Below are positions 8,059 to 45,262 of a DNA stretch of 64,000 bases, in pieces. The stretch comes from Acidimicrobiia bacterium (lineage in GTDB: Bacteria; Actinomycetota; Acidimicrobiia; Spongiisociales; Spongiisociaceae): NCBI GenBank assembly GCA_965231815.1, contig OZ246890.1:1799469-1863468 (forward strand), in the 5' to 3' direction. Below the pieces are notes generated by a model. It saw only the letters and a list, made by a program, of their open reading frames with translations, was not told the DNA's origin and did not search any database. The position numbers were made by a program, and so were the translations under genes. Numbering within the stretch: position 1 is the stretch's first letter; every line of letters begins with the position of its first letter.

Positions 8059-9741
8059 TCAGCCGTCTGTCACGCATCCCAAGCTGGCTGATGACACGGT
8101 TCGGACGTACTTGGCGAGGGTTCCTCTCGTAGCCTTCGACGGGGGCGCCGTCCAGGCTGATCGCCTTCCGGCGAGTTCGGCGTCCGGTACGTGGAGGGTG
8201 ATGGTGCGGGCTGTGGCGTCGATCGAGATCCGGTCGCCCTGCTCTACCAGTGCCAGCGGGCCACCTTCCTGAGCTTCGGGGCTCACATGTCCCATGATGA
8301 ATCCATGGGACCCGCCGGAGAACCGGCCATCCGTGATCAGGGCGACGTCTTGGCCCAGTCCGGCGCCCATGATGGCCGAGGTGGGGGTGAGCATCTCCGG
8401 CATTCCCGGACCACCTTTGGGGCCCTCGTAGCGGATCAGGATCACTGAGCCGGGGGTGATCTCGCCCCGCTCGAGTGCTTCCAGCATGTCCTCCTCGCTG
8501 TCGTAGGGCAGGGCGACGCCGCTGAAGGACAGACCTTCCTTGCCGGTGATCTTGGCTACGGCGCCCTCGGGGGCGAGGTTCCCGCGGAGTATCTGGATGT
8601 GCCCTGAATCCTTGATCGGGCTATCCCAATCGGCGACCACCTGCTGACCCTCGGAGAGTGCAGGTAGGTCGGAAAGATTCTCGCGCAAGGTCCGTCCGGT
8701 GACGGTCATGCAGTCACCGTCAATGGCGCCCCGCTCCAGGAGCATGCGGAGCACCGCAGGCGTACCTCCCACCGTGTGAAGATCGGCCATTACATACTTC
8801 CCGGAGGGCTTGAGGTCGGCCAGGTAGGGAGTGCGGTCGCTGACAGCTTGGAAGTCCTCGATGTGTAGCTCCACACCGGCGGAGTGCGCCATGGCAATCA
8901 GGTGCAGGACCGCATTGGTGGAGCCGCCTAGGACCATGGTGACCGTCATGGCGTTCTCGAAAGCGGCTCGGGTCATGATGTCGCTCGGCTTGATGTCCTC
9001 CTCCATTAGCCGCCGCACCGCCGCTCCGGCCGCCAGACATTCGGCTGCCTTGCCGTCATCGAGCGCAGGCGTGGAGGAACTGTAGGGAAGGGACATGCCC
9101 AGTGTCTCGATCGCTACCGCCATCGTGTTGGCGGTGTACATCCCTCCGCAAGCGCCGGCCCCCGGGCACGCATTGCGGACGATATCGAGGCGGTCCGCCT
9201 CGTCTAGTCGTCCGGCGATGTATTCACCGTACGACTGGAAGGCCGAAACTATGTCGATCGGATTACCGTGACGGTCGGTTCCGGGCTGAATGGTTCCACC
9301 GTAGATCATCACCGACGGCCGGTTCAATCGGGACATCGCCATCACCGCTCCGGGCATGTTCTTGTCACAGCCCGGAATGGAGATGTTGGCGTCATACCAC
9401 TGGGCGCTCATTACCGTCTCGATCGAATCCGCGATCAGATCCCGTGACTGGAGCGAGTAGGACATGCCTTCGGTCCCCATCGACATGCCATCGGAGACCC
9501 CGATGGTATTGAAGCGCATGCCTACCAGCCCGGCCCGGGTAACCCCTTCCTTGACCAGGGAAGCCAGATGGTCGAGGTGCATGTTGCAGCTGTTCCCCTC
9601 GTACCACATGGAAGCGATTCCCACCTGGGCTTTGGACATGTCCTCCGTGGTGAGGCCGGATGCGTAAAGCATCGCTTGGGATCCGCCCTGCGATCTTTCC
9701 TGAGTTATACGTCTGCTGATGAGGTTGATGGGTTGTGGCAT
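8059..9741 (-). CDS. ilvD: Dihydroxy-acid dehydratase
   Basis: IlvD/EDD family N-terminus and full-length body. Confidence 0.9.
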
Positions 9742-9754
9742 GCTCCGATCTTAG

Positions 9755-9962
9755 CCCCGATTATTCATGGATGGAGGTTTGGGGGATGAGTGGAGTAGAA
9801 CCATATTCGCACCCTGACCAGGCAATACAGCTATCGGAGTTCCCCATTCGGGTCCGGTGTAGAGATTCACCTGTCGGGTGAACGGCGGGTTTCTCCTGAT
9901 ACTCGGGTTGAACAGGCGCTACATGCCTCGGTGTGTGGGAAACCTGAATAATCAGGGCTAGA
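9755..9962 (+). repeat. Interspersed repeat family B copy B1
   Basis: CCCCGATTATTCATGGATGGAGG ... GGTGTGTGGGAAACCTGAATAATCAGGGCTAG; near-identical copies at 43626 and 44975 and a reverse copy at 54099. Confidence 0.7.
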
Positions 9963-10250
9963 GCGTGCGGGGAATGGTCGGGACTGTCGCCCCGACCGTG
10001 TCGAGTAACGGCTCGGGAGAGTCTTCGGGCGGGCCGGAGTTCCCGACGGGTTACTCTGCTGGGGATGTGTACCGCACACCTGGATCGTTTTCGCTACTCC
10101 TGCCGGGGTTGTGGATGCGTGCCTATATGGTGACGTCGGTGAGAGCCGGATTCCTCCTTCAGCCCGACGTTCCTCATCCCTCATCGATCCGTCTGAAGTC
10201 TGTAGTGCCCGGGGCTAGCCTTTCCTCTGACCTTTGAGCTTTGTGAGATT

Positions 10251-13200
10251 GTGAAGGGAATGCGTGTGGTCGATATTCCCAAGTGCCCAAGATGTGACCA
10301 CGAGATGGTCTTGCGTACGGCGCGGAAAGGCGCGAGGGCCGGGAGCCGGTTTTGGGGGTGTAGCACTTTCCCGCGGTGCAGAGGAACGCGGAAGTATATC
10401 GGCAATGGTCGCGCGCATCCCCGGCGTGGTGTGAAGGTTGGGGTCGCTGGTCCGACCTCAACCTCAGATCAATCTCGCGAGACGTTCGTCCGGCGTTGCG
10501 GTTCGGGGTGTCCTGTACATGTGGCTTCCGAGGGGTTGGCTAATTCGCTGCGGAAGGCTCGTGTGGATTGGTCAGACGGCACCACATCGACCTATCGGAA
10601 GCTGGGGTGGAGCGCTGAGTACGCGACGGCGGGGGCTTCTCTACGATCGATAGGCCTCAACGGTGTGGCTGCCTTGTCCAACTGCTGGTTGGCGAGCGAC
10701 CGCGCCGGTAGTCTTCCGGATGAGGACTCTCTGCGCGTGCTGGGCGTGATGGGGAAACTCTTGCGCCGTGGCGTTGCGCCACCTCTACATCCTGAATCCG
10801 AACGGACATTGCTTAGTTCTGTCGGGCTAGACGATCTTCTCATATCCGGCCCCCTGCCGGGCGACGTGTCTCCCACACTCCGATCCGCGCACCGTGTGGA
10901 TCGAGCGGCATTCGACGCCATTCAAGGAGACCAGGTTGAGGTAGAGCGCGGCTTGGTCGAGTCTGCGGATGAGGAACGTCTGGTCAGTTGGATGATTGAG
11001 CATCACGCGTGGGCGGCACGCTGGCTGGTGCCGCAGGCCTCGTTCGACCGTTTACTACAGGCGGGAGGACATAGGAAAACGGGAAACCGTAGGTGCGACT
11101 TCCTCTGGGCGCCGCCCGGTGTTTCTCCAGTAGTGATCGAGGTAGACGGCGCTCAGCACGAACAGCAAGTGTTGGCTGATACAGAGAGGGACCGGCTCCT
11201 GCGGTCGATTGGTATTCGTACGATTCGTGTTCCTACTAGCGAGCTTCAGGATGGACACGGCCATGCCCTTGATCGGGTGTCGACCGTGGTTTCCCGTATC
11301 GGAGGACCAGCCACTAGACGGTATATGCCCGCCTCGGACACCGATGTGCGTCTGGTTTGGGGCGCGATCCAGGTCCATCGTTTCGTTCTGGGTTTGTGCG
11401 AGTCGCTACGACGGGGATTCCTACGCGGAGATACTTGGGTCGTCGAGGTCGAGGATCCCACGGGTACGGCTGTGGATCTGGTCGCCCCTTACTTGGAGAC
11501 TCTTTACGCGCTTGATCGCCTCTGGGCTACCAGTTCGGTAGCGCCTGAGCGGGTCCTGCTCACTACGCCCACCGGACCGATCCTCTTGCAGCGCACATCC
11601 GAGGGTCGATATGAACGTACAACGGTCGGGACGGAGGATCGGGCGAGAAGGCCGCAGGTGCGGATGCTTCTCCAATGCGACCTCACCTCTTGCCAGCCGA
11701 TTCCTGACGCAGATGTCACACCGACGGTTGTGCTCAGATCCACCGGTGTGCCCTTTCTGATGTCCGACCCGGGGACAGTCGCTACTAGGCGAGATCGTGT
11801 CAGCCTGGAGGGCGAAGGGGTGCGGGACGCCATGACGGCTCTCCTCCGGGCAGTGTTCGCCAAGCGCGACTTCCGTGAAGGACAGTACGAAGCGATCTGC
11901 GAGGTGATGGCGGGAAGGGACTGCGCCGTGCTTCTTCCGACCGGTGCCGGCAAGAGCCTCGTCTACCAGTTCGCCGGGCTGTTTCTTCCCGGCCGGTGTC
12001 TGGTGGTCGATCCCCTGGTAGCGCTCATCGAGGACCAAGTCGAAGGGCTACACCGCTACGGAATCGACCGTGTCGAGGGCATCACACACGACATAGTCAG
12101 CAGAGGTGACGCAAGTACAATAATGAAAGCGATCGCAGAAGCTGACGTGTACTTCATGCTGGTCGCGCCTGAACGTCTGCAGATACCGGACTTTCGCGAG
12201 ACGTTGCGGGAACTAGCGGCTGGGACACCGGTCAACCTAGCCGTTGTAGATGAAGCCCATTGCGTGTCCGAGTGGGGACATGACTATCGCCACTCGTATC
12301 TCAGCCTGGGCCGGGTCTTGCGTGTTTTGTGTGAGGACTCAGCCAAAGAGCCCCCACCGTTGCTTGCGCTCACGGGGACCGCCTCGCGGGCTGTGCTAAG
12401 AGATGTGCTGTTTCAGCTCGAGATTCGGCAGGTGTCGGACAACTCCATAGTACGACCTGAGACGTTCGACCGTCCTGAACTCAACTATCACGTAGTGTCC
12501 ATCGACGTCAACTACCGTATGCCTCGGCTTCGTAGTGAATTACGGAGGCTACCGGCTCTCTTCGGGGAGCCTAGGTCCGCGTTCTTCGAGCCGGCGGGCA
12601 AGAACACCTTCCCCGGTCTGGTCTTTGTACCGACCGTCAACGGCTTCCCTTCACTCGAGAAGATCACCAAACTGACGGAAGAGGTCATTCCCTCGGTCAG
12701 GATGTTCTCGGGTAAGGTGCCGCGGGGTTTCAATCAGACGCGGTATAAGTCCGAGAAGCGGAGGAATGCCCGTCTATTCATGAACAACTCATCTGTAGCA
12801 CTCGTGTCCACGAAAGCCTTCGGTATGGGCATCGACAAACCGGACATTCGCTGGGTGGTGCACCACATGCTTCCCGGTTCTATCGAGTCCTACTACCAGG
12901 AGGTCGGACGAGCCGGCCGTAATGGAGACCCGGCGCATTGTGTGTTGATGATTAGCGAGTACGACCCGAGTCGTAACCGACAACTGCTGGCCGAGGACCG
13001 CTCTTTGGAGTCTGCACGTGAACGGCACGGCCGCATTCGGCGGTCTGAGCGTGACGATGTGACCACTGCCCTGTTTTTCCATCTATCCAATTTCGCAGGG
13101 ATAGACACCGAAGTGTCCGTTCTCGTGGAGGTAGCGGCTGCGCTAGCGCCCGGGGCGGAACGCCGAAATATCGAGCTACCTTTCAAAGGGGATCGATCAA

Positions 13201-14102
13201 AGCGGGAACGAGCCCTTCACCGTCTCTCGATTCTGGGTGTGGTGAGCGACTATCTCGTCAGATTCAGAGCAGAGACCTTTGTAGTAACCGTTGCCGGAGT
13301 TAGGCCCGACACGGTCGGCGAAGCGTTGGAAGAGTTCGTCAGGCGTAGCCAGCCTGGACTGTTGACTGAGATCAAAGACCGCGTCGGACGGCACGACGAC
13401 CTCATGACTGCAATCGAGGGCTGTGGGCGTGAACTGATCAAGTTCGTATACCGCACCGTCGAGCAAACACGCCGCCGCTCCCTCAGAGAGATGTGGCTAG
13501 CCGCACACGCCGCCGCGCGGAGCAACAATCCCAACCGAGAGCTCCGCCGTCGAATACTCGACTACATGACCGAAGGTGATGTCACCCCTGTCATGCTCCG
13601 CCTGGCGGAAGAGTCCCATTTCAGGTTTTCCGACTGGGTATCGGCGTGGGAATCAATGGAGGGCGACTCAGACGCCCGGGAGTGGCGAGCCGCGGCAGCC
13701 CGTCTGCTCGGCTCCTACCCAACTCATCCCGGCCTGCTGGTGTCGCGGGCCCTACCCGAAGTTCTGTTGGACGACGGTGACCCGAATGAGTTCGAGTCGA
13801 ACCTGCGAGAAGCGTTTCAGTCGGCCAAGAGTGAGTATCAGGCAGACGAAGCAGACACTGTCGGCGCCGTCCGCCTGATTCTCGAACGCGTAATGGAGGA
13901 GCGCCCACTCTGGGGATCTGCCGTGGCCGGCGCGGCTTACTACGCCGGAGTGTCCGACGCAGACGATACCGACTCGTCGGCAACGACCCACACCTCGCGT
14001 GAGAGTTGGCCGATCGCGGCCTTCACTCTCGCCGAAGGCGTTGAGGTTGCTATCTCACTTACACGGGCAGTCCTGGACATCTATAGAGAGGACCGACAGT
14101 GA
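10251..14102 (+). CDS. Multidomain protein: topoisomerase-type C4 zinc finger + DUF559 (Vsr-like PD-(D/E)xK endonuclease) + RecQ-family SF2 helicase + unassigned C-terminal region
   Basis: N-terminal CPRCDHEM ... CSTFPRC; central PVVIEVDGAQHE ... DRLLRSIGIRTIRV (DUF559); helicase motifs LLPTGAGKSL, VVDEAHCVSEWGHDYR, VSTKAFGMGIDKPDIRWVVHHMLPGSIESYYQEVGRAGRNG; GTG start. Confidence 0.8.
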   Translation: MKGMRVVDIPKCPRCDHEMVLRTARKGARAGSRFWGCSTFPRCRGTRKYIGNGRAHPRRGVKVGVAGPTSTSDQSRETFVRRCGSGCPVHVASEGLANSLRKARVDWSDGTTSTYRKLGWSAEYATAGASLRSIGLNGVAALSNCWLASDRAGSLPDEDSLRVLGVMGKLLRRGVAPPLHPESERTLLSSVGLDDLLISGPLPGDVSPTLRSAHRVDRAAFDAIQGDQVEVERGLVESADEERLVSWMIEHHAWAARWLVPQASFDRLLQAGGHRKTGNRRCDFLWAPPGVSPVVIEVDGAQHEQQVLADTERDRLLRSIGIRTIRVPTSELQDGHGHALDRVSTVVSRIGGPATRRYMPASDTDVRLVWGAIQVHRFVLGLCESLRRGFLRGDTWVVEVEDPTGTAVDLVAPYLETLYALDRLWATSSVAPERVLLTTPTGPILLQRTSEGRYERTTVGTEDRARRPQVRMLLQCDLTSCQPIPDADVTPTVVLRSTGVPFLMSDPGTVATRRDRVSLEGEGVRDAMTALLRAVFAKRDFREGQYEAICEVMAGRDCAVLLPTGAGKSLVYQFAGLFLPGRCLVVDPLVALIEDQVEGLHRYGIDRVEGITHDIVSRGDASTIMKAIAEADVYFMLVAPERLQIPDFRETLRELAAGTPVNLAVVDEAHCVSEWGHDYRHSYLSLGRVLRVLCEDSAKEPPPLLALTGTASRAVLRDVLFQLEIRQVSDNSIVRPETFDRPELNYHVVSIDVNYRMPRLRSELRRLPALFGEPRSAFFEPAGKNTFPGLVFVPTVNGFPSLEKITKLTEEVIPSVRMFSGKVPRGFNQTRYKSEKRRNARLFMNNSSVALVSTKAFGMGIDKPDIRWVVHHMLPGSIESYYQEVGRAGRNGDPAHCVLMISEYDPSRNRQLLAEDRSLESARERHGRIRRSERDDVTTALFFHLSNFAGIDTEVSVLVEVAAALAPGAERRNIELPFKGDRSKRERALHRLSILGVVSDYLVRFRAETFVVTVAGVRPDTVGEALEEFVRRSQPGLLTEIKDRVGRHDDLMTAIEGCGRELIKFVYRTVEQTRRRSLREMWLAAHAAARSNNPNRELRRRILDYMTEGDVTPVMLRLAEESHFRFSDWVSAWESMEGDSDAREWRAAAARLLGSYPTHPGLLVSRALPEVLLDDGDPNEFESNLREAFQSAKSEYQADEADTVGAVRLILERVMEERPLWGSAVAGAAYYAGVSDADDTDSSATTHTSRESWPIAAFTLAEGVEVAISLTRAVLDIYREDRQ

Positions 14103-14674
14103 CCGATGGCAACATTGTCGAATTCGAAACCGTACACCGCCGCTTCGGGGAGGCCGTCGAAGCTCTCAAGCAGCTGTCCGAGCTGATGGGTGGGCTACGC
14201 CAGGCCGAAAAGGTGAAAGCGCGAACCGCGGCGACTATGTCCGACGCCTCCGATCGCCTTCGAGAAACGTCCGCAACCCTAGCGTCGTATTGCGAACTCT
14301 TGCGCTCGGCGTTGGCTTCAACGATTCAAGCCCTGCAGTCCGCCGAGAATCTAGCGACCGGGGCTGAGCTATCAGCGATCCGAACCGAGGTGGCCTCCAA
14401 TAAGGCAGCCCTTGCGCACCTAGTCGAGGCCGAAGATTCTCGCAACGTCAAGCTTGCCGACTTGGCTAACCGACAGAACACGATCGCCGACACAGTCGAG
14501 ACAATCCAGAATAGGATCGACGGAGCTCTCTCTCAGGCGCAACAATCTCGAGACAATGCCCTCTCCGAACTCACGGAAACCAAGAACCGACTCGAGATAC
14601 TCGAAATCCGCCTCAGCGGACTACCGCCCAAAATCCGCCGCAAGTACGACCTAGACAACCTTTCACCCTCCTAA
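14099..14674 (+). CDS. Coiled-coil protein, translationally coupled to the upstream helicase gene
   Basis: GTG start overlaps the upstream TGA (GTGA); 191 aa, heptad-like Ala/Leu/Glu/Arg-rich sequence, no catalytic motif recognised. Confidence 0.6.
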   Translation: MTDGNIVEFETVHRRFGEAVEALKQLSELMGGLRQAEKVKARTAATMSDASDRLRETSATLASYCELLRSALASTIQALQSAENLATGAELSAIRTEVASNKAALAHLVEAEDSRNVKLADLANRQNTIADTVETIQNRIDGALSQAQQSRDNALSELTETKNRLEILEIRLSGLPPKIRRKYDLDNLSPS

Positions 14675-14678
14675 CCCG

Positions 14679-15437
14679 ATGCTGATCGTCAGCGACGTTC
14701 ATGCCGCCTTCGCCGAGTTGGCCGCGGTGGCAGGCCTGGGAGAGCCGCTGCTGGTTTTGGGTGATCTGCTCAACTTCGTCGACTACCGCACCGGCGCCGG
14801 CATTGTTGGCGACGTATACGGGCGCGATCATGTGACGGAGTTCATCCGGAATCGCAAGAAAGGTGATTGGGATGCAAACCGACGCTTGTGGCGGAGGACG
14901 ACCGCCGGAAGGTCCGCGGAACTAGCGGCTCGAACCCGTGAGAGGGTGCTCGAGCAGTACGCAGCCGCTCGGCGTGCGCTGGACGGCGCCGACGCCTACG
15001 TAACGTTCGGGAACGTGGACTGGCCTGACGAGATGAGGGCGTGCTTGTCGAACGTCGCCCGGATAGTCGACGGTGAGGTGGTCGAGATCGAGGGTTACTC
15101 GGTGGGTTTTGCGGGCGGCGGGGTACCGACACCCGCCAACGCGCGGGGAGAGGTGTCACACGAGGCAATGGCCGAAAAGTTGGAGGGACTGGGTGCGGTC
15201 GACATACTCTGTACCCACGTAGCCCCTTCGATTGCTCCCTTGCAGCGAGACGTCATCACCGGTGTTCTGGAGCGATCGTCAACGGCGGTACTGGAGTACC
15301 TGCTCGCCTACCAACCGTCTTTCCACTACTTCGGAGACGTACACCAACCACAGGCGAACATGTGGAGGGTGGGCAGGACGCTATGCCGCAACGTGGGGTA
15401 TTTCCGCGCCACCGCCCGTCCGGTACGCCACGGCTAG
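14679..15437 (+). CDS. Calcineurin-like metallophosphoesterase
   Basis: DVH, GDLLN, GNVD, CTHVAP and GDVH metal-binding motifs; starts 5 nt after the previous stop. Confidence 0.75.
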   Translation: MLIVSDVHAAFAELAAVAGLGEPLLVLGDLLNFVDYRTGAGIVGDVYGRDHVTEFIRNRKKGDWDANRRLWRRTTAGRSAELAARTRERVLEQYAAARRALDGADAYVTFGNVDWPDEMRACLSNVARIVDGEVVEIEGYSVGFAGGGVPTPANARGEVSHEAMAEKLEGLGAVDILCTHVAPSIAPLQRDVITGVLERSSTAVLEYLLAYQPSFHYFGDVHQPQANMWRVGRTLCRNVGYFRATARPVRHG

Positions 15438-15763
15438 CCGCAGCCGCAGCCACCCCCGCCGCCGGCCGGGTTCTGGTTTATCACGCTGAATCCTTCACCC
15501 TGAGCGGTCTGGACGAAGTCGATTTCCACGCCGCGGACCGTTTCCCGAGCGGTGTTGGCCACGGCTACCTTGACGCCGTGGGCCTCTTCCACCTCGTAGG
15601 CGTCGTCGACCTCGGGCAGGAAGGCCAGACCGTAGACGGTTCGGCAGCATCCCTGGCCGGCCGGATAGACGTGCAGGTAAGAGCGGTCGACTTCCCCATC
15701 GGCAATCTCCAATACTTTCTCGGCTGCGGTAGAAGACAACGCCACCAGCGCTCCGTTACCCAT
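15434..15763 (-). CDS. erpA: Fe-S cluster insertion protein (HesB/IscA/ErpA family)
   Basis: LSSTAAEKVLEI ... GQGCCRTVYGLAF ... C-terminal GCGCG; start taken at MGNGAL. Confidence 0.8.
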   Translation of the reverse strand: MGNGALVALSSTAAEKVLEIADGEVDRSYLHVYPAGQGCCRTVYGLAFLPEVDDAYEVEEAHGVKVAVANTARETVRGVEIDFVQTAQGEGFSVINQNPAGGGGGCGCG

Positions 15764-15826
15764 TTCTAATCCCTTCCTTGGCGGTCTCGACGATCCTAGG
15801 ATATCTAAGCCGCCCATATTGACCCC

Positions 15827-16258
15827 GTGGCCTTACAGCCCATGTACTTCGAGCCCCGACAGATACTGAACTCCCAAGGCTATGCCGACCCTCCCGGTCC
15901 CGATAAGGGGGTTCTTCGCACCAGGTACATCGCCTTGGTGGAGGCCCGTCTTTACGATCGCAATGCTTCTGCCTTACAGCGCCAAGGGAGGCTGGCAACC
16001 TACGCACCATACGAGGGCCAGGAAGCGATCCAGATCGGAGCGGTAGCGCAGCTCCAGCCCGCGTGGCACCCCGATCATTCCTACGGTACGTCCGCCATCC
16101 TGTCGGTGGGGCGTTCCCATCCGAGACCGGTCGTAAGGGACGGTGCGGTTGCGATCGCTCACCAGTTTCCTCTGAGCCTTTCCTACGACCACCGCATAAT
16201 CGACGGAGCCGAGGGGCGCCGGTTCATGGCAGCGGTCACCGATGCATTGGAGAGCTAG
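15827..16258 (+). pseudogene. Deletion scar of a 2-oxoacid (branched-chain keto-acid/pyruvate) dehydrogenase operon: E1-alpha N-terminal fragment fused in frame to the E2 C-terminal ~50 aa
   Basis: ARLYDRNASALQRQGRLATYAPYEGQEAIQIGA (E1-alpha TPP region) followed by AILSVGRSHPRPVVRDGAVAIAHQFPLSLSYDHRIIDGAEGRRFM (E2 catalytic C-terminus) in a 143-aa ORF. Confidence 0.6.
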
Positions 16259-16260
16259 GA

Positions 16261-16372
16261 GGGTCCTGAAAAACGAATCTTACGGGGTTCGGCGGTTGGC
16301 AAACTGCCTGGTCATGGAGTTGTGGGTTAGCGGCCGAACCCCTTTGTGCGGGGTTTCTCAGCACCCTCCTAG
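16261..16372 (-). repeat. Interspersed repeat family A copy A2 (reverse orientation)
   Basis: Reverse complement matches A3/A4 almost exactly. Confidence 0.75.
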
Positions 16373-16439
16373 TTCCTCCGGTTGAGCGGTACCTCTTCGG
16401 AGGGCTCGAGGACGTTCCCGGATATCTATCCTTGCCGAC

Positions 16440-18220: not shown

Positions 18221-18293
18221 GCCGGGGTAGCTCAGTCGGCAGAGCGGCTCATTCGTAATGAGCAGGTCAGGGGTTCGATTCCCCTCTCCGGCT
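18221..18293 (+). tRNA. tRNA-Thr (anticodon CGT)
   Basis: Cloverleaf folded by hand: acceptor GCCGGGG/CTCCGGC, anticodon stem GCTCA/TGAGC, loop TTCGTAA, T-arm AGGGG-TTCGATT-CCCCT. Confidence 0.9.
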
Positions 18294-18389
18294 CCGTACT
18301 ACTTCGGATTCGTCGTGATCTCGCGCCGTTTATCGTATGAATCGGCGGGGTATCAGAAGGGTGGGTGCAGTCGACCATGGCGCAGGACG

Positions 18390-18974
18390 ATGGCTGATAG
18401 GCAGAACTTTGAAAGGGATGCCTTGGTGCACGCCCATAGGCTCTATTCGGCGGCGCTGAGGATGACCCGGAACCGGGCCGATGCCGAGGATCTGGTACAG
18501 GAGACCTTCCTGAAGGCTTACCGTGGCTACGACGGGTTCACGGAAGGGACGAACCTCCGAGCCTGGCTCTACCGGATACTCACCAATACCTTCATCAACC
18601 GCTACCGGAAAGGTCAGCGCAGGCCTAAGGAGGTCGAACTCGACGAGGTGGAGGATCTCTATCTCTACCGAAGGTTGGCGCCCACGGTGTCCAACCGGGT
18701 GGCCCGTTCAGCGGAGGATCAGGTCTTCGAGTCGCTGGAGGGGGCGGATGTCAGGGACGCTATCGATAAGCTTCCGGGTCCGTACCGGATGCCGTTGCTG
18801 CTAGTAGGTTTGGAGGGATTCTCATACAAGGAGACCGCCGCCATGCTGGATATTCCCATCGGTACGGTCATGTCCCGGTTGCATCGCGGAAGAAAGATGC
18901 TGCAGAGGCTATTGTGGGAGCAGGCGAAGGAATACGGGATCGCCACTCCGACCGAGGACGCCGATGAAGGATAA
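18390..18974 (+). CDS. ECF (sigma-70 group 4) RNA polymerase sigma factor, SigR/SigH/SigE-like
   Basis: Region 2 [12 protein letters not shown] and region 4 [23 protein letters not shown]; followed by a ZAS anti-sigma gene. Confidence 0.85.
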
Positions 18975-19206
18975 GGACAGATGTATCCGGGCGCTCACAC
19001 GCGTCTATTCCTACCTGGACGGAGAGATCCGGACCATGCGCAGGGTGCGAATACGGCTGCACCTGCGGAATTGCATCAACTGCGAGCGGGTTTACGAGTT
19101 CGAGCGACGCTTTATGGGTTTCGTTCGTGAGCGTATCCGGGTTGAGGCGCCGCCGGAGGTCGTTGAGCGTATCCGGGTATCCATCCGCGACTTGAGACGT
19201 CGCTGA
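18964..19206 (+). CDS. Zinc-binding anti-sigma factor (ZAS family, RsrA/RshA-like)
   Basis: 80 aa with C7 ... HLRNCINC (H-x3-C-x2-C); overlaps the sigma gene end. Confidence 0.75.
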
Positions 19207-43246: not shown

Positions 43247-43625
43247 TGTCCCGAGTCGGAAGTTCCGTGCACATCGCGAGTAACCACCCGGCCTGCTTCC
43301 GGCACAGACCCGGGTTAAGATCGCGAAAACCGAACTACCCGGATGGGACCCCTCTCAGTGGGACCCACCCCCGGCCGCCGCCTCCTCAGCGTCGAAACGC
43401 GTCCCGCTAACCCCTCGCCTTGCCAAACAGAGGCAAGGCAGAAGAAAACAAGCAAGATGATCCCAACCCCGGTCCGGTCGGTACCTGACCCAACCGTCGG
43501 TGCTTTACGGTTACCCACCAGTATGCAGACCGGGTATGACAGATTTCCCCGGCCGTCGGGTTACGCCCGTCGGAAAGATTTCGCGGTCTCCCGAACACAA
43601 GCGAAACAACGATTCACGACACTAG

Positions 43626-43832
43626 GCCCGATTATTCATGGATGGAGGTTTGGAGGATGAGTGGAGTAGACCATATTCGCGCCCTGACCAGGCAATACAG
43701 CTATCGGCGTTTCCCATCCCGGTCCTATTTAGAGATTCACCTATCGGGTGAACGGTGGGTAGCCCCCCAAAACTCGGGTGGAACTGGCGTAACATGCCTC
43801 GGTGTGTGGGAAACCTGAATAATCAGGGCTAG
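43626..43832 (+). repeat. Interspersed repeat family B copy B2
   Basis: Full-length B copy just downstream of the polyprenyl synthase gene. Confidence 0.7.
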
Positions 43833-44883: not shown

Positions 44884-44974
44884 TTCGTTTGCTCCGCCTC
44901 GGGAAAAGGTCTTCCCTATGCTAAAGACATGTGCATTGATCGCCACCATCGTCGGGTCGATCCACTTTGGCGTA

Positions 44975-45184
44975 ACCCCTATTTTTGATGGATGGGGGTT
45001 TGGGTATGGGTGGAGGAAGCCACAATAGCGTCCTGACCAGGCAATACACCTATCGGCGTTTCCCGTCCCGGTCCGGTGTGGAGATGCACCCGCCGGGTGA
45101 AACCGGTCGGTTCCTACTAAATAATCAGGTTGAACCGGCGATACATGCCGCGGTGTGTGGGAAACCCGAACGATCAGGGTTAAA
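44975..45184 (+). repeat. Interspersed repeat family B copy B3
   Basis: Full-length B copy between the polyprenyl synthase start and clpC. Confidence 0.7.
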
Positions 45185-45262
45185 GTCACTAATAGGAATC
45201 AGGAGGGCTTAAGCTTGTATCCTCGGAGGGGTAGAGTCATGGGTCCGGGGAGGTGTTAGGTA

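Follow-up and report, generated by a model that had tools for sequence, protein, structure and literature searches.

In PsyrTA/RqlHI, a RecQ-like helicase fused to an effector domain is encoded together with a small operon partner; RqlH is genotoxic without RqlI, which binds and restrains it, and PsyrTA was later shown to defend against phages. Hhe joins a superfamily 1 (SF1) helicase of the DUF4011 type to a Vsr domain, and the YprA-family helicases of ARMADA and Druantia carry C-terminal Vsr domains. Here we describe a locus of an Acidimicrobiia bacterium (contig OZ246890.1) in which a RecQ-type helicase is fused to a Vsr-like nuclease. The whole stretch of DNA analysed, 64,000 nucleotides (nt) long, is called the 64-kb window, and coordinates are positions in it. 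A first-pass annotation had grouped three genes of this window (g1, g2 and g3, the first, second and third of the trio) into one helicase-nuclease module. We favour, with somewhat better than even confidence, a different reading, in which g1 and g2 form a horizontally acquired two-gene accessory cassette beside a resident gene, g3, and represent an undescribed helicase-nuclease conflict module of the defence or toxin-antitoxin (TA)-like type. The apparent three-gene operon was created by insertion of the cassette next to g3.

10251-14102, plus strand: g1, 1283 amino acids (aa), GTG start; zinc ribbon, Vsr-DUF559 nuclease, RecQ-type superfamily 2 (SF2) helicase, winged-helix and helical-repeat regions
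14099-14674, plus strand: g2, a 191-aa helical partner with a polybasic C-terminal tail (LPPKIRRKYD)
14679-15437, plus strand: g3, 252 aa, a resident, divergent gene, probably of the metallophosphoesterase superfamily, outside the conserved module

The three co-directional, tightly linked open reading frames (ORFs) lie exactly where they had been placed. The GTGA overlap joining g1 to g2 is likewise seen (CAGTGACC at 14097-14104), with a Shine-Dalgarno-like GAGAGG ahead of it, and the spacer from the g2 stop to the g3 ATG measures 4 nt (CCCG) instead of the 5 nt claimed.

The g1-g2 pair compared with described systems

The proposed fusion of a zinc ribbon, a DUF559 domain and a RecQ-type core in g1 is confirmed by Pfam, by the NCBIfam recQ_fam model and by the match to the RecQ structure 1oyw. 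Four Pfam domains score above their gathering thresholds (Zn_ribbon_Top1, residues 11-48; DUF559, 294-346; DEAD, 543-714; Helicase_C, 790-892). Residues 1-535, modelled with AlphaFold2 from an alignment of 37 sequences (predicted local distance difference test (pLDDT) score 84.8), resolve into the zinc ribbon, a linker (residues 53-94) and three further domains (~95-230, ~235-350 and ~363-500), so that the protein can be divided as follows.

10281-10394, plus strand: topoisomerase-type C4 zinc ribbon, residues 11-48 (PF01396, 35 bits vs a cutoff of 32; high pLDDT)
10533-10940, plus strand: alpha/beta domain, residues ~95-230, after the disordered linker 53-94 (AlphaFold2 pLDDT ~90)
10953-11300, plus strand: Vsr-like/DUF559 PD-(D/E)xK endonuclease domain, residues ~235-350 (conserved residue signature)
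11337-11750, plus strand: second alpha/beta domain, residues ~363-500 (AlphaFold2 pLDDT >90; conserved across the family, with matches spanning ~100-535)
11826-13028, plus strand: RecQ-type helicase core, residues ~526-926 (motif I LPTGAGKS, DEAH box, motif VI QEVGRAGR)
13038-14099, plus strand: C-terminal winged-helix and all-helical (TPR-like) region, residues ~930-1283

Residues ~95-230 and ~363-500 have no match in Pfam, and no specific match to the first of these alpha/beta domains was found in the PDB. The nuclease domain is assigned to the Vsr/DUF559 type on its profile match, its Vsr-like fold and its conserved catalytic acidic residues and histidine. In a family alignment of 37 sequences (32-87% identity), nuclease residues D283, E297, D299, R313, D314 and R326 do not vary and Q302/H303 reach at least 90% conservation; the helicase motifs I (LPTGAGKS, with K568), II (DEAH, residues 667-670) and VI (QEVGRAGR) are likewise invariant. 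Because these nuclease residues and helicase motifs are conserved across all 37 sequences, both activities are probably retained in g1. The zinc ribbon is absent from several relatives, and the first alpha/beta domain is also missing in some.

The helicase belongs to the RecQ family of SF2, as indicated by the recQ_fam subfamily model (TIGR00614, 240 bits vs a cutoff of 219.8) and by the intact motifs I, II (DEAH) and VI. RecQ, BLM and WRN cores in the PDB match residues ~525-919 only (E=1e-38 to 3e-52), with RecQ 1oyw giving the strongest value (E=3e-52). Orthology with bacterial RecQ fails, however: with the equivalog model TIGR01389 g1 reaches 265 of the required 640 bits, and neither a RecQ zinc-binding/RQC domain nor an HRDC domain is detectable by sequence in the C terminus. 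Canonical bacterial RecQ therefore shares the core motifs with g1 and differs from it in possessing RQC and HRDC domains, in lacking the ~525-aa nuclease extension and in its C terminus; the distribution of g1 is, moreover, that of an accessory gene.

The length of 191 aa given for g2 is correct, and its description as a coiled-coil protein holds in part: the protein is helical and belongs to no curated family, and its coiled-coil-type matches, to the arms of SMC, JetC and LmuB, are weak and the only ones obtained. No Pfam or NCBIfam family is significant (DprA_N, E=0.22, is noise), and domain scans detect no ABC-ATPase head. Close relatives of g2 amount to 20 clusters, all unnamed, a scarcity that matches that of g1. 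A small partner is nevertheless a regular companion of the helicase. At 25 loci outside the lineage of the window, spread over many bacterial phyla, a g1 relative is directly followed by a small partner gene, and in 22 of the 23 full-length loci first examined the helicase stop lies close to the start of the partner ORF (131-304 aa; offset -13 to +39 nt), the exception being L017, where the contig ends. Loci L089, L091, L092, L098 and L099 also have a partner directly after the g1 relative. These partners are mutually homologous, with 62 pairs matching at E<1e-5 once the close clade is set aside vs none with reversed sequences, a control by which coiled-coil bias was rejected as the source of the similarity. 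The C termini fall into two types: 14 of the 23 partners end in a hydrophobic 19-residue segment within 8 residues of the C terminus, that is, a tail-anchored transmembrane (TM) helix, and the other nine, including g2, in a short polybasic tail such as LPPKIRRKYD. g2 itself lies in a connected similarity cluster that includes TM-bearing partners. Since most partners are TM-anchored and the rest basic-tailed, these features argue for contact of the partner with a membrane or a polyanion.

PsyrTA/RqlHI resembles the g1-g2 pair in being a two-gene operon, in its RecQ-family SF2 core without HRDC, in the fused effector and in the small partner. The PADLOC PsyrT model scores 230 bits on the g1 core, and its best stretch (profile positions 7-223 of 689) covers the helicase core only. 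However, the PsyrTA effector is a phosphoribosyltransferase (PRTase), whereas that of g1 is a Vsr/DUF559 nuclease with no PRTase domain by Pfam, and a PRTase-bearing relative (P0061) matches only 29% of g1. The PsyrTA/RqlHI partner is DprA-like, whereas the g2 family is helical and tail-anchored or polybasic, and g1 has in addition a zinc ribbon, two alpha/beta domains and a winged-helix/TPR-like C terminus. PsyrTA/RqlHI is thus the closest functional analogue, and membership fails because g1 has no PRTase and g2 is not DprA-like.

Other systems share single elements with the pair. DpdF gives the best PADLOC match of g1 (PDLC02864, 299 bits) and belongs to the same RecQ-like SF2 branch, but the match is confined to the helicase core, the DpdF equivalog NF041063 reaches 147 bits against a cutoff of 550 and DpdF has no Vsr domain match; neither dpdA, dpdB, dpdC nor any other dpd gene is adjacent to the trio in the window. 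Hhe, ARMADA and Druantia, like g1, link an ATP-driven helicase covalently to a Vsr-type PD-(D/E)xK nuclease and lie in accessory or defence loci. Their helicases are of the SF1 DUF4011 or YprA/DUF1998 types, whereas that of g1 is a RecQ with its nuclease at the N terminus, and the partners differ; the YprA structure 6znp matches g1 at E=4e-7, against 3e-52 for RecQ. The DruE, DrmA and BrxH models match only ~50-70 residues around helicase motif VI of g1 (E=1e-9 or weaker).

PADLOC 2.0 yields no GajA/B, HamA/B or Hhe match for g1, so that an analogy drawn earlier with Gabija and Hachiman is not supported. The likeness to SbcCD/Mre11-Rad50 fares no better, since g3 has no SbcD/Mre11 match, g2 has no ATPase head and g3 occurs together with g1 and g2 in one lineage only. 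The statement that no named system matches is borne out in the PADLOC and literature searches: no paper was found that combines RecQ, DUF559 and defence or describes the g1 architecture, the one paper that brings DUF559, helicase and anti-phage together is unrelated, and none was found on a tail-anchored partner of a defence helicase.

Empty and filled sites at the phosphoesterase gene

The separation of the pair from g3 comes from related genomes. In L084, L085 and L086 (g3 79-84% identical to that of the window) and in L090 (88%), the ilv operon, the NYN-domain gene and ilvD (minus strand) follow in this order, and the phosphoesterase gene (plus strand) lies directly beside ilvD, with no g1 or g2. 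The pair is likewise absent from L087 and L088, two loci of "Candidatus Spongiisocius" with a g3 that is 74-75% identical. The trio occurs only in the window, L089 and L091, and the g3 of the latter two is 95% identical to that of the window. A tblastn search of g3 over 99 loci finds it with g1 in two (L089 and L091) and without g1 in six, and finds no g3 homologue beside any g1 relative outside the window's own lineage. The idea of an accessory segment is thereby upheld for g1 and g2, which vary among relatives, and the three genes do not hold together as a module, g3 being fixed.

The insertion can be traced on both sides. In a blastn comparison with the empty site of L090, synteny extends to window position 9754 and is picked up again from 14678, the base that precedes the g3 ATG. 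The spacers of L084 and L085 are too diverged for fine mapping, and the left flank was resolved in an alignment (A3) of the empty L090 site with the filled L089 site. It consists of a repeat at 9752-9961, the ancestral ilvD-phosphoesterase spacer at ~9962-10120, in which motifs including GGTTAC and GTGGATGCG can still be made out, and then cassette sequence, which begins with the following feature.

10120-10250, plus strand: cassette leader (left junction ~10120-10145, from alignment A3 and the blastn synteny breaks)

In L090, ~15 nt separate the junction point from the g3 ATG. As judged from these alignments, the cassette is ~4.55 kb long and consists of a leader of ~110-130 nt, g1 and g2, inserted a few nt upstream of the g3 ATG. 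Because it landed between the upstream region of g3 and its start codon, the cassette shares the orientation of g3 and leaves a 4-nt gap between g2 and g3; no functional link is needed to explain this spacing and orientation. No tRNA or non-coding RNA (ncRNA) integration target lies at the insertion, the only tRNA gene in the window being a tRNA-Thr at 18221-18295.

The locus L087 presents another insertion. An island led by a tyrosine integrase and containing AbiEii, PDDEXK_3, HNH_3, DUF4268, IS110 and ISL3 genes (L087 1-9724) abuts the upstream side of its phosphoesterase gene, the same side that the cassette occupies in the window; ilvD is not within the 10 kb shown. The upstream flank of the phosphoesterase gene may therefore be a site of repeated insertion among these Acidimicrobiia.

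The family of g3 has a breadth of its own. Equivalent searches return at least 1400 relatives of g3 vs ~60 of g1; those of g3 are named "Icc-related phosphoesterase" or "metallophosphoesterase" and are conserved in Acidimicrobiia. Its description as a calcineurin-like metallophosphoesterase was assessed on the motifs DxH, GDxxD(R), GNH(D/E), H and GHxH together with a Pfam Metallophos match. g3 itself stays under the Pfam threshold (E=0.043, 14.7 bits vs 21.5), and its family-invariant motifs are D6xH8, G28D29..N32, G111N112-V-D114 (with Val in place of His), H180 and G219D220xH222. Because a PF00149 match (2e-6 at best) is obtained for 21 of the 27 relatives and the family motifs are kept, assignment of g3 to the superfamily is reasonable by way of its relatives. 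Searches of the PDB with phmmer and with a 27-sequence profile gave nothing relevant, and identification of g3 as Mre11/SbcD or as any solved phosphoesterase was rejected for want of an NCBIfam or PDB match. The PADLOC model PDC-S10 matches it weakly (E=1.3e-4).

In four loci without the pair, a UvrD/PcrA-type helicase with an HRDC domain is encoded 30-66 nt downstream of the phosphoesterase gene (L084 10930-13572, L085 10814-13435, L087 10793-13405 and L088 992-3568); this helicase is not present in the 64-kb window. The conserved phosphoesterase-helicase pairing may be more telling on the real role of g3 than its arrangement in the window.

Distribution, genomic company and rival explanations

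About 60 full-length relatives of g1 were found in an index of 5.8 billion proteins, and the family alignment was also scanned against 185,579 species genomes. Full-length relatives occur in Acidimicrobiales, Dehalococcoidia, Alcanivorax, Limnocylindria, Bryobacterales, Cryosericum, Bacillota, Opitutae, Phycisphaerales, Isosphaeraceae, Chloroflexota, Rhodoferax, Clostridium and a Woesearchaeota bin; the higher taxa represented are Acidimicrobiia, Dehalococcoidia, Gammaproteobacteria, Acidobacteriota, Bacillota, Verrucomicrobiota, Planctomycetota, Cryosericota and possibly an archaeon. The great majority of complete members measure 1150-1350 aa. A phmmer search with residues 1-535 of g1 against 1.84 billion cluster representatives (50% identity) returns 375 clusters at E<=1e-10 and 79 at E<=1e-30. 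Among 2.9 million viral contigs of IMG/VR, two carry a near-full-length relative, and plasmids of PLSDB show matches to the zinc ribbon only, there fused to restriction, NERD or UvrD proteins.

Within the window's lineage, the synonymous divergence (dS) from L091 is 0.18 for g1 and 0.19 for ilvD; because the two are equal, a single old insertion followed by vertical inheritance is suggested. The ratio of nonsynonymous to synonymous divergence (dN/dS) is ~0.26-0.30 for g1 and g2, 0.17-0.19 for g3 and 0.06 for ilvD, values that show g1 and g2 to be intact and under purifying selection, evolving faster than core genes.

The company kept by the pair was surveyed with Pfam and PADLOC, the Pfam tally covering 116 ORFs from 16 loci, and is reported as co-location case by case, not as a statistic. 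A full-length DruE lies ~1.5 kb upstream of the pair in L003 (PADLOC), ZacC of Azaca lies downstream of it in L007, and ZorC and ZorD of type I Zorya lie immediately upstream of it in L023, a Rhodoferax metagenome-assembled genome (3540-13710). The g1 relative of L023 is N-terminally shorter (it aligns to g1 294-1192) and its partner has 258 aa; the adjacency to Zorya may reflect no more than a shared island, or else a hybrid arrangement. The conflict-type island around the pair in L081 encodes ORC/CDC6-like and PRTase-CE proteins, a helix-turn-helix (HTH) protein with an M78 peptidase, DUF4411 with M78, HNH, HigB and a TacA/acetyltransferase. A PhdYeFM antitoxin and an HTH gene are near the pair in L082, and IS21, CopG, HicA and AAA_14/DUF4143 genes in L098, where a LexA-like/ImuB/DnaE2-type cassette lies 4-5 kb away. 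In L092, a contig from IMG/VR, the pair directly follows two serine recombinases that come after capsid, holin and amidase genes at a prophage end. By Pfam, the 116 ORFs also include two integrases, a Type I methylase, an EH-signature protein and many metabolic enzymes, whereas Metallophos is missing from the families that recur in at least two of them; a phmmer search of the neighbour ORFs with one integrase seed found nothing. At the level of individual loci, these neighbours suggest an association with defence or mobile elements.

The position behind the pair is filled by different genes in different genomes, because L081, whose g1 is 86% identical, has a PLD-like gene there and not a phosphoesterase. 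This gene (L081 14318-15010) encodes 230 aa, and its match to PLDc_2 is weak (E=6e-4).

Anti-phage or anti-plasmid defence would be the most likely biological role of the pair, a proposition to which we give about even chances. The RecQ-type core would act as a DNA-dependent ATPase that loads on DNA and translocates in the 3'-5' direction, as known from RecQ biochemistry, with the zinc ribbon and winged helix adding DNA binding; the motor would then deliver the Vsr-like nuclease, which by analogy with Vsr would nick or cut DNA. With moderate confidence, the small partner is predicted to bind g1, most plausibly at its helical C-terminal domain. It could either restrain a potentially genotoxic enzyme until triggered, as RqlI does RqlH, or tether this enzyme where foreign DNA comes in, at the membrane or the edge of the nucleoid. 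g3 would have no conserved role in this mechanism. In its most specific form, which we put forward tentatively and hold to be rather less likely than the general reading, the pair would be a two-component immune system, spread widely but sparsely, in which a small coiled-coil partner, tail-anchored in the cytoplasmic membrane or, in Acidimicrobiia, polybasic-tailed, gates or positions a RecQ motor with its Vsr-like nuclease, so that DNA is attacked at the place or time of foreign DNA entry.

Several observations weigh against the reading of g1-g2 as a mobile conflict cassette. The cassette encodes no recombinase, and its ends show neither a recognisable target-site duplication nor terminal repeats. 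The dS of g2 vs L091 (0.06) is well below those of g1 and ilvD, which may be short-gene noise. No PADLOC model matches g1 except generic RecQ-core ones (DpdF and PsyrT), the neighbours in L083 and L099 are metabolic, as are most Pfam neighbour entries, and the clade of g2 itself has no TM helix. The g1-g2 interaction and the membrane localisation are predictions from gene order and sequence features, and RecQ and Vsr are both classical repair proteins, which leaves room for a repair role.

Such a role, in housekeeping or in stress, would make g1 a paralogue of RecQ that carries its own Vsr-type nicking nuclease and processes mismatches, forks or recombination intermediates, and g2 an accessory scaffold. 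The RecQ-family core, the repair-endonuclease character of the Vsr fold, the metabolic neighbourhoods of several loci and the mutasome cassette of L098 are all in keeping with it. We nevertheless regard it as unlikely, because the pair is absent and the site empty in close relatives of the same lineage, the phyletic distribution is very sparse and scattered, dN/dS is ~5x that of ilvD, RQC and HRDC domains are missing and the pair recurs by defence, TA and mobile genes.

About as unlikely is a selfish TA or addiction pair, in which g1 would be a genotoxic toxin and g2 its antitoxin, stabilising the pair itself or its host island, with no anti-phage benefit. RqlH, a RecQ-like protein that is genotoxic without its partner, is an analogy, the genes overlap or abut in a manner consistent with translational coupling, and TA modules are frequent neighbours; yet the predicted antitoxin is encoded downstream and in most family members is anchored in the membrane by its tail, an unusual trait for a type II antitoxin, and PsyrTA defends against phages, so that TA behaviour does not preclude defence.

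A three-gene system, in which the phosphoesterase and the coiled-coil protein act with the helicase-nuclease in an SbcCD/Mre11-Rad50-like or three-component defence arrangement, is largely refuted by the distribution and appears very improbable. In the window, L089 and L091 the genes are co-directional, the g2-g3 gap is 4-28 nt and no terminator-like site lies between; for these reasons g1, g2 and g3 are probably co-transcribed in this lineage, and secondary co-option is possible. Against the three-gene system stand the six loci whose g3 orthologues (74-88% identical) have no g1 or g2, the lack of a g3 homologue by any other g1 relative and of Metallophos as a recurrent neighbour, the disparity in family size and the absence of an ABC-ATPase head in g2 and of an SbcD/Mre11 match in g3. 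A replication or transfer function for an integrative mobile element or prophage, to which the serine recombinases of L092 at a prophage-like contig end and the IS21 adjacent in L098 might point, is equally remote, given that the window insert comprises g1 and g2 only, with no recombinase, replication or transfer genes, and that near-full-length relatives are so rare in viral contigs and plasmids hold the zinc ribbon alone.

Surroundings of the locus and significance

The trio has ilvD, the NYN-domain gene and an Fe-S protein gene as neighbours in the window, and GC content across the region is unremarkable. The flanking repeats and degraded operon that had been described are real, and the repeats form two families. 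The first, of ~210 nt, has a copy at 9752-9961, bordered by the ilvD start on one side and the retained spacer before g1 on the other, and others at 43623-43832, 54307-54099 (inverted) and 44973-45185 (80-89% identity). The L089 contig ends inside the copy at 9752-9961 (it begins at window position 9936), which is consistent with an assembly break at the repeat. The second, of ~125 nt, is present at 16255-16380, 31242-31119, 43246-43129 and 2886-2770 (82-93% identity); its copy at 16255-16380 directly follows a dehydrogenase-operon remnant, in place of a spacer present in L089. This remnant, a 143-aa ORF at 15827-16258, fuses an E1 dehydrogenase N terminus to a 2-oxoacid dehydrogenase E2 C terminus: relative to L089, ~2.7 kb are deleted at ~16061-16063, comprising most of E1 alpha, all of E1 beta and most of E2, whereas L089, L090 and L091 keep the intact three-gene operon. 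The operon deletion and the repeats hint at ongoing genome erosion in the source organism.

Between g3 and this remnant, a HesB/IscA-like Fe-S assembly ORF (15434-15817, minus strand; Pfam Fe-S_biosyn E=2.3e-5, slightly below the cutoff) converges on g3, the stop codons overlapping by 4 nt. Further downstream, the tRNA-Thr gene (anticodon CGT) overlaps the 5' end of a mechanically called sigma-factor ORF (18258-18974), the true start of which, because of this overlap, probably lies further downstream, and a small zinc-binding anti-sigma-like ORF follows at 18964-19206. An Rfam scan of the window detects no ncRNA besides the tRNA-Thr, and a promoter and terminator scan of 9700-15900 is uninformative, with counts equal to the shuffle background.

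The locus marks a limit of reading operons from spacing: a 4-nt gap and a shared orientation mimicked system membership of a resident gene, and the mobile pair was told apart from its landing site by comparison with empty sites. It is plausible that g1-g2 belongs to the known class of helicase-nuclease conflict modules and is an undescribed defence system. If it is a defence or TA-like system, it would add a new architecture, an N-terminal Vsr domain on a RecQ motor with a tail-anchored helical partner, to the recurring theme of helicase plus nuclease. Its family comprises ~375 clusters at 50% identity in many phyla and at present bears no annotation beyond "RecQ family helicase". From the membrane-anchored partner one may propose a testable connection of the membrane with attack on DNA which, if true, would constitute a membrane-tethered helicase-nuclease logic distinct from those of PsyrTA, Hhe, Zorya and Druantia.

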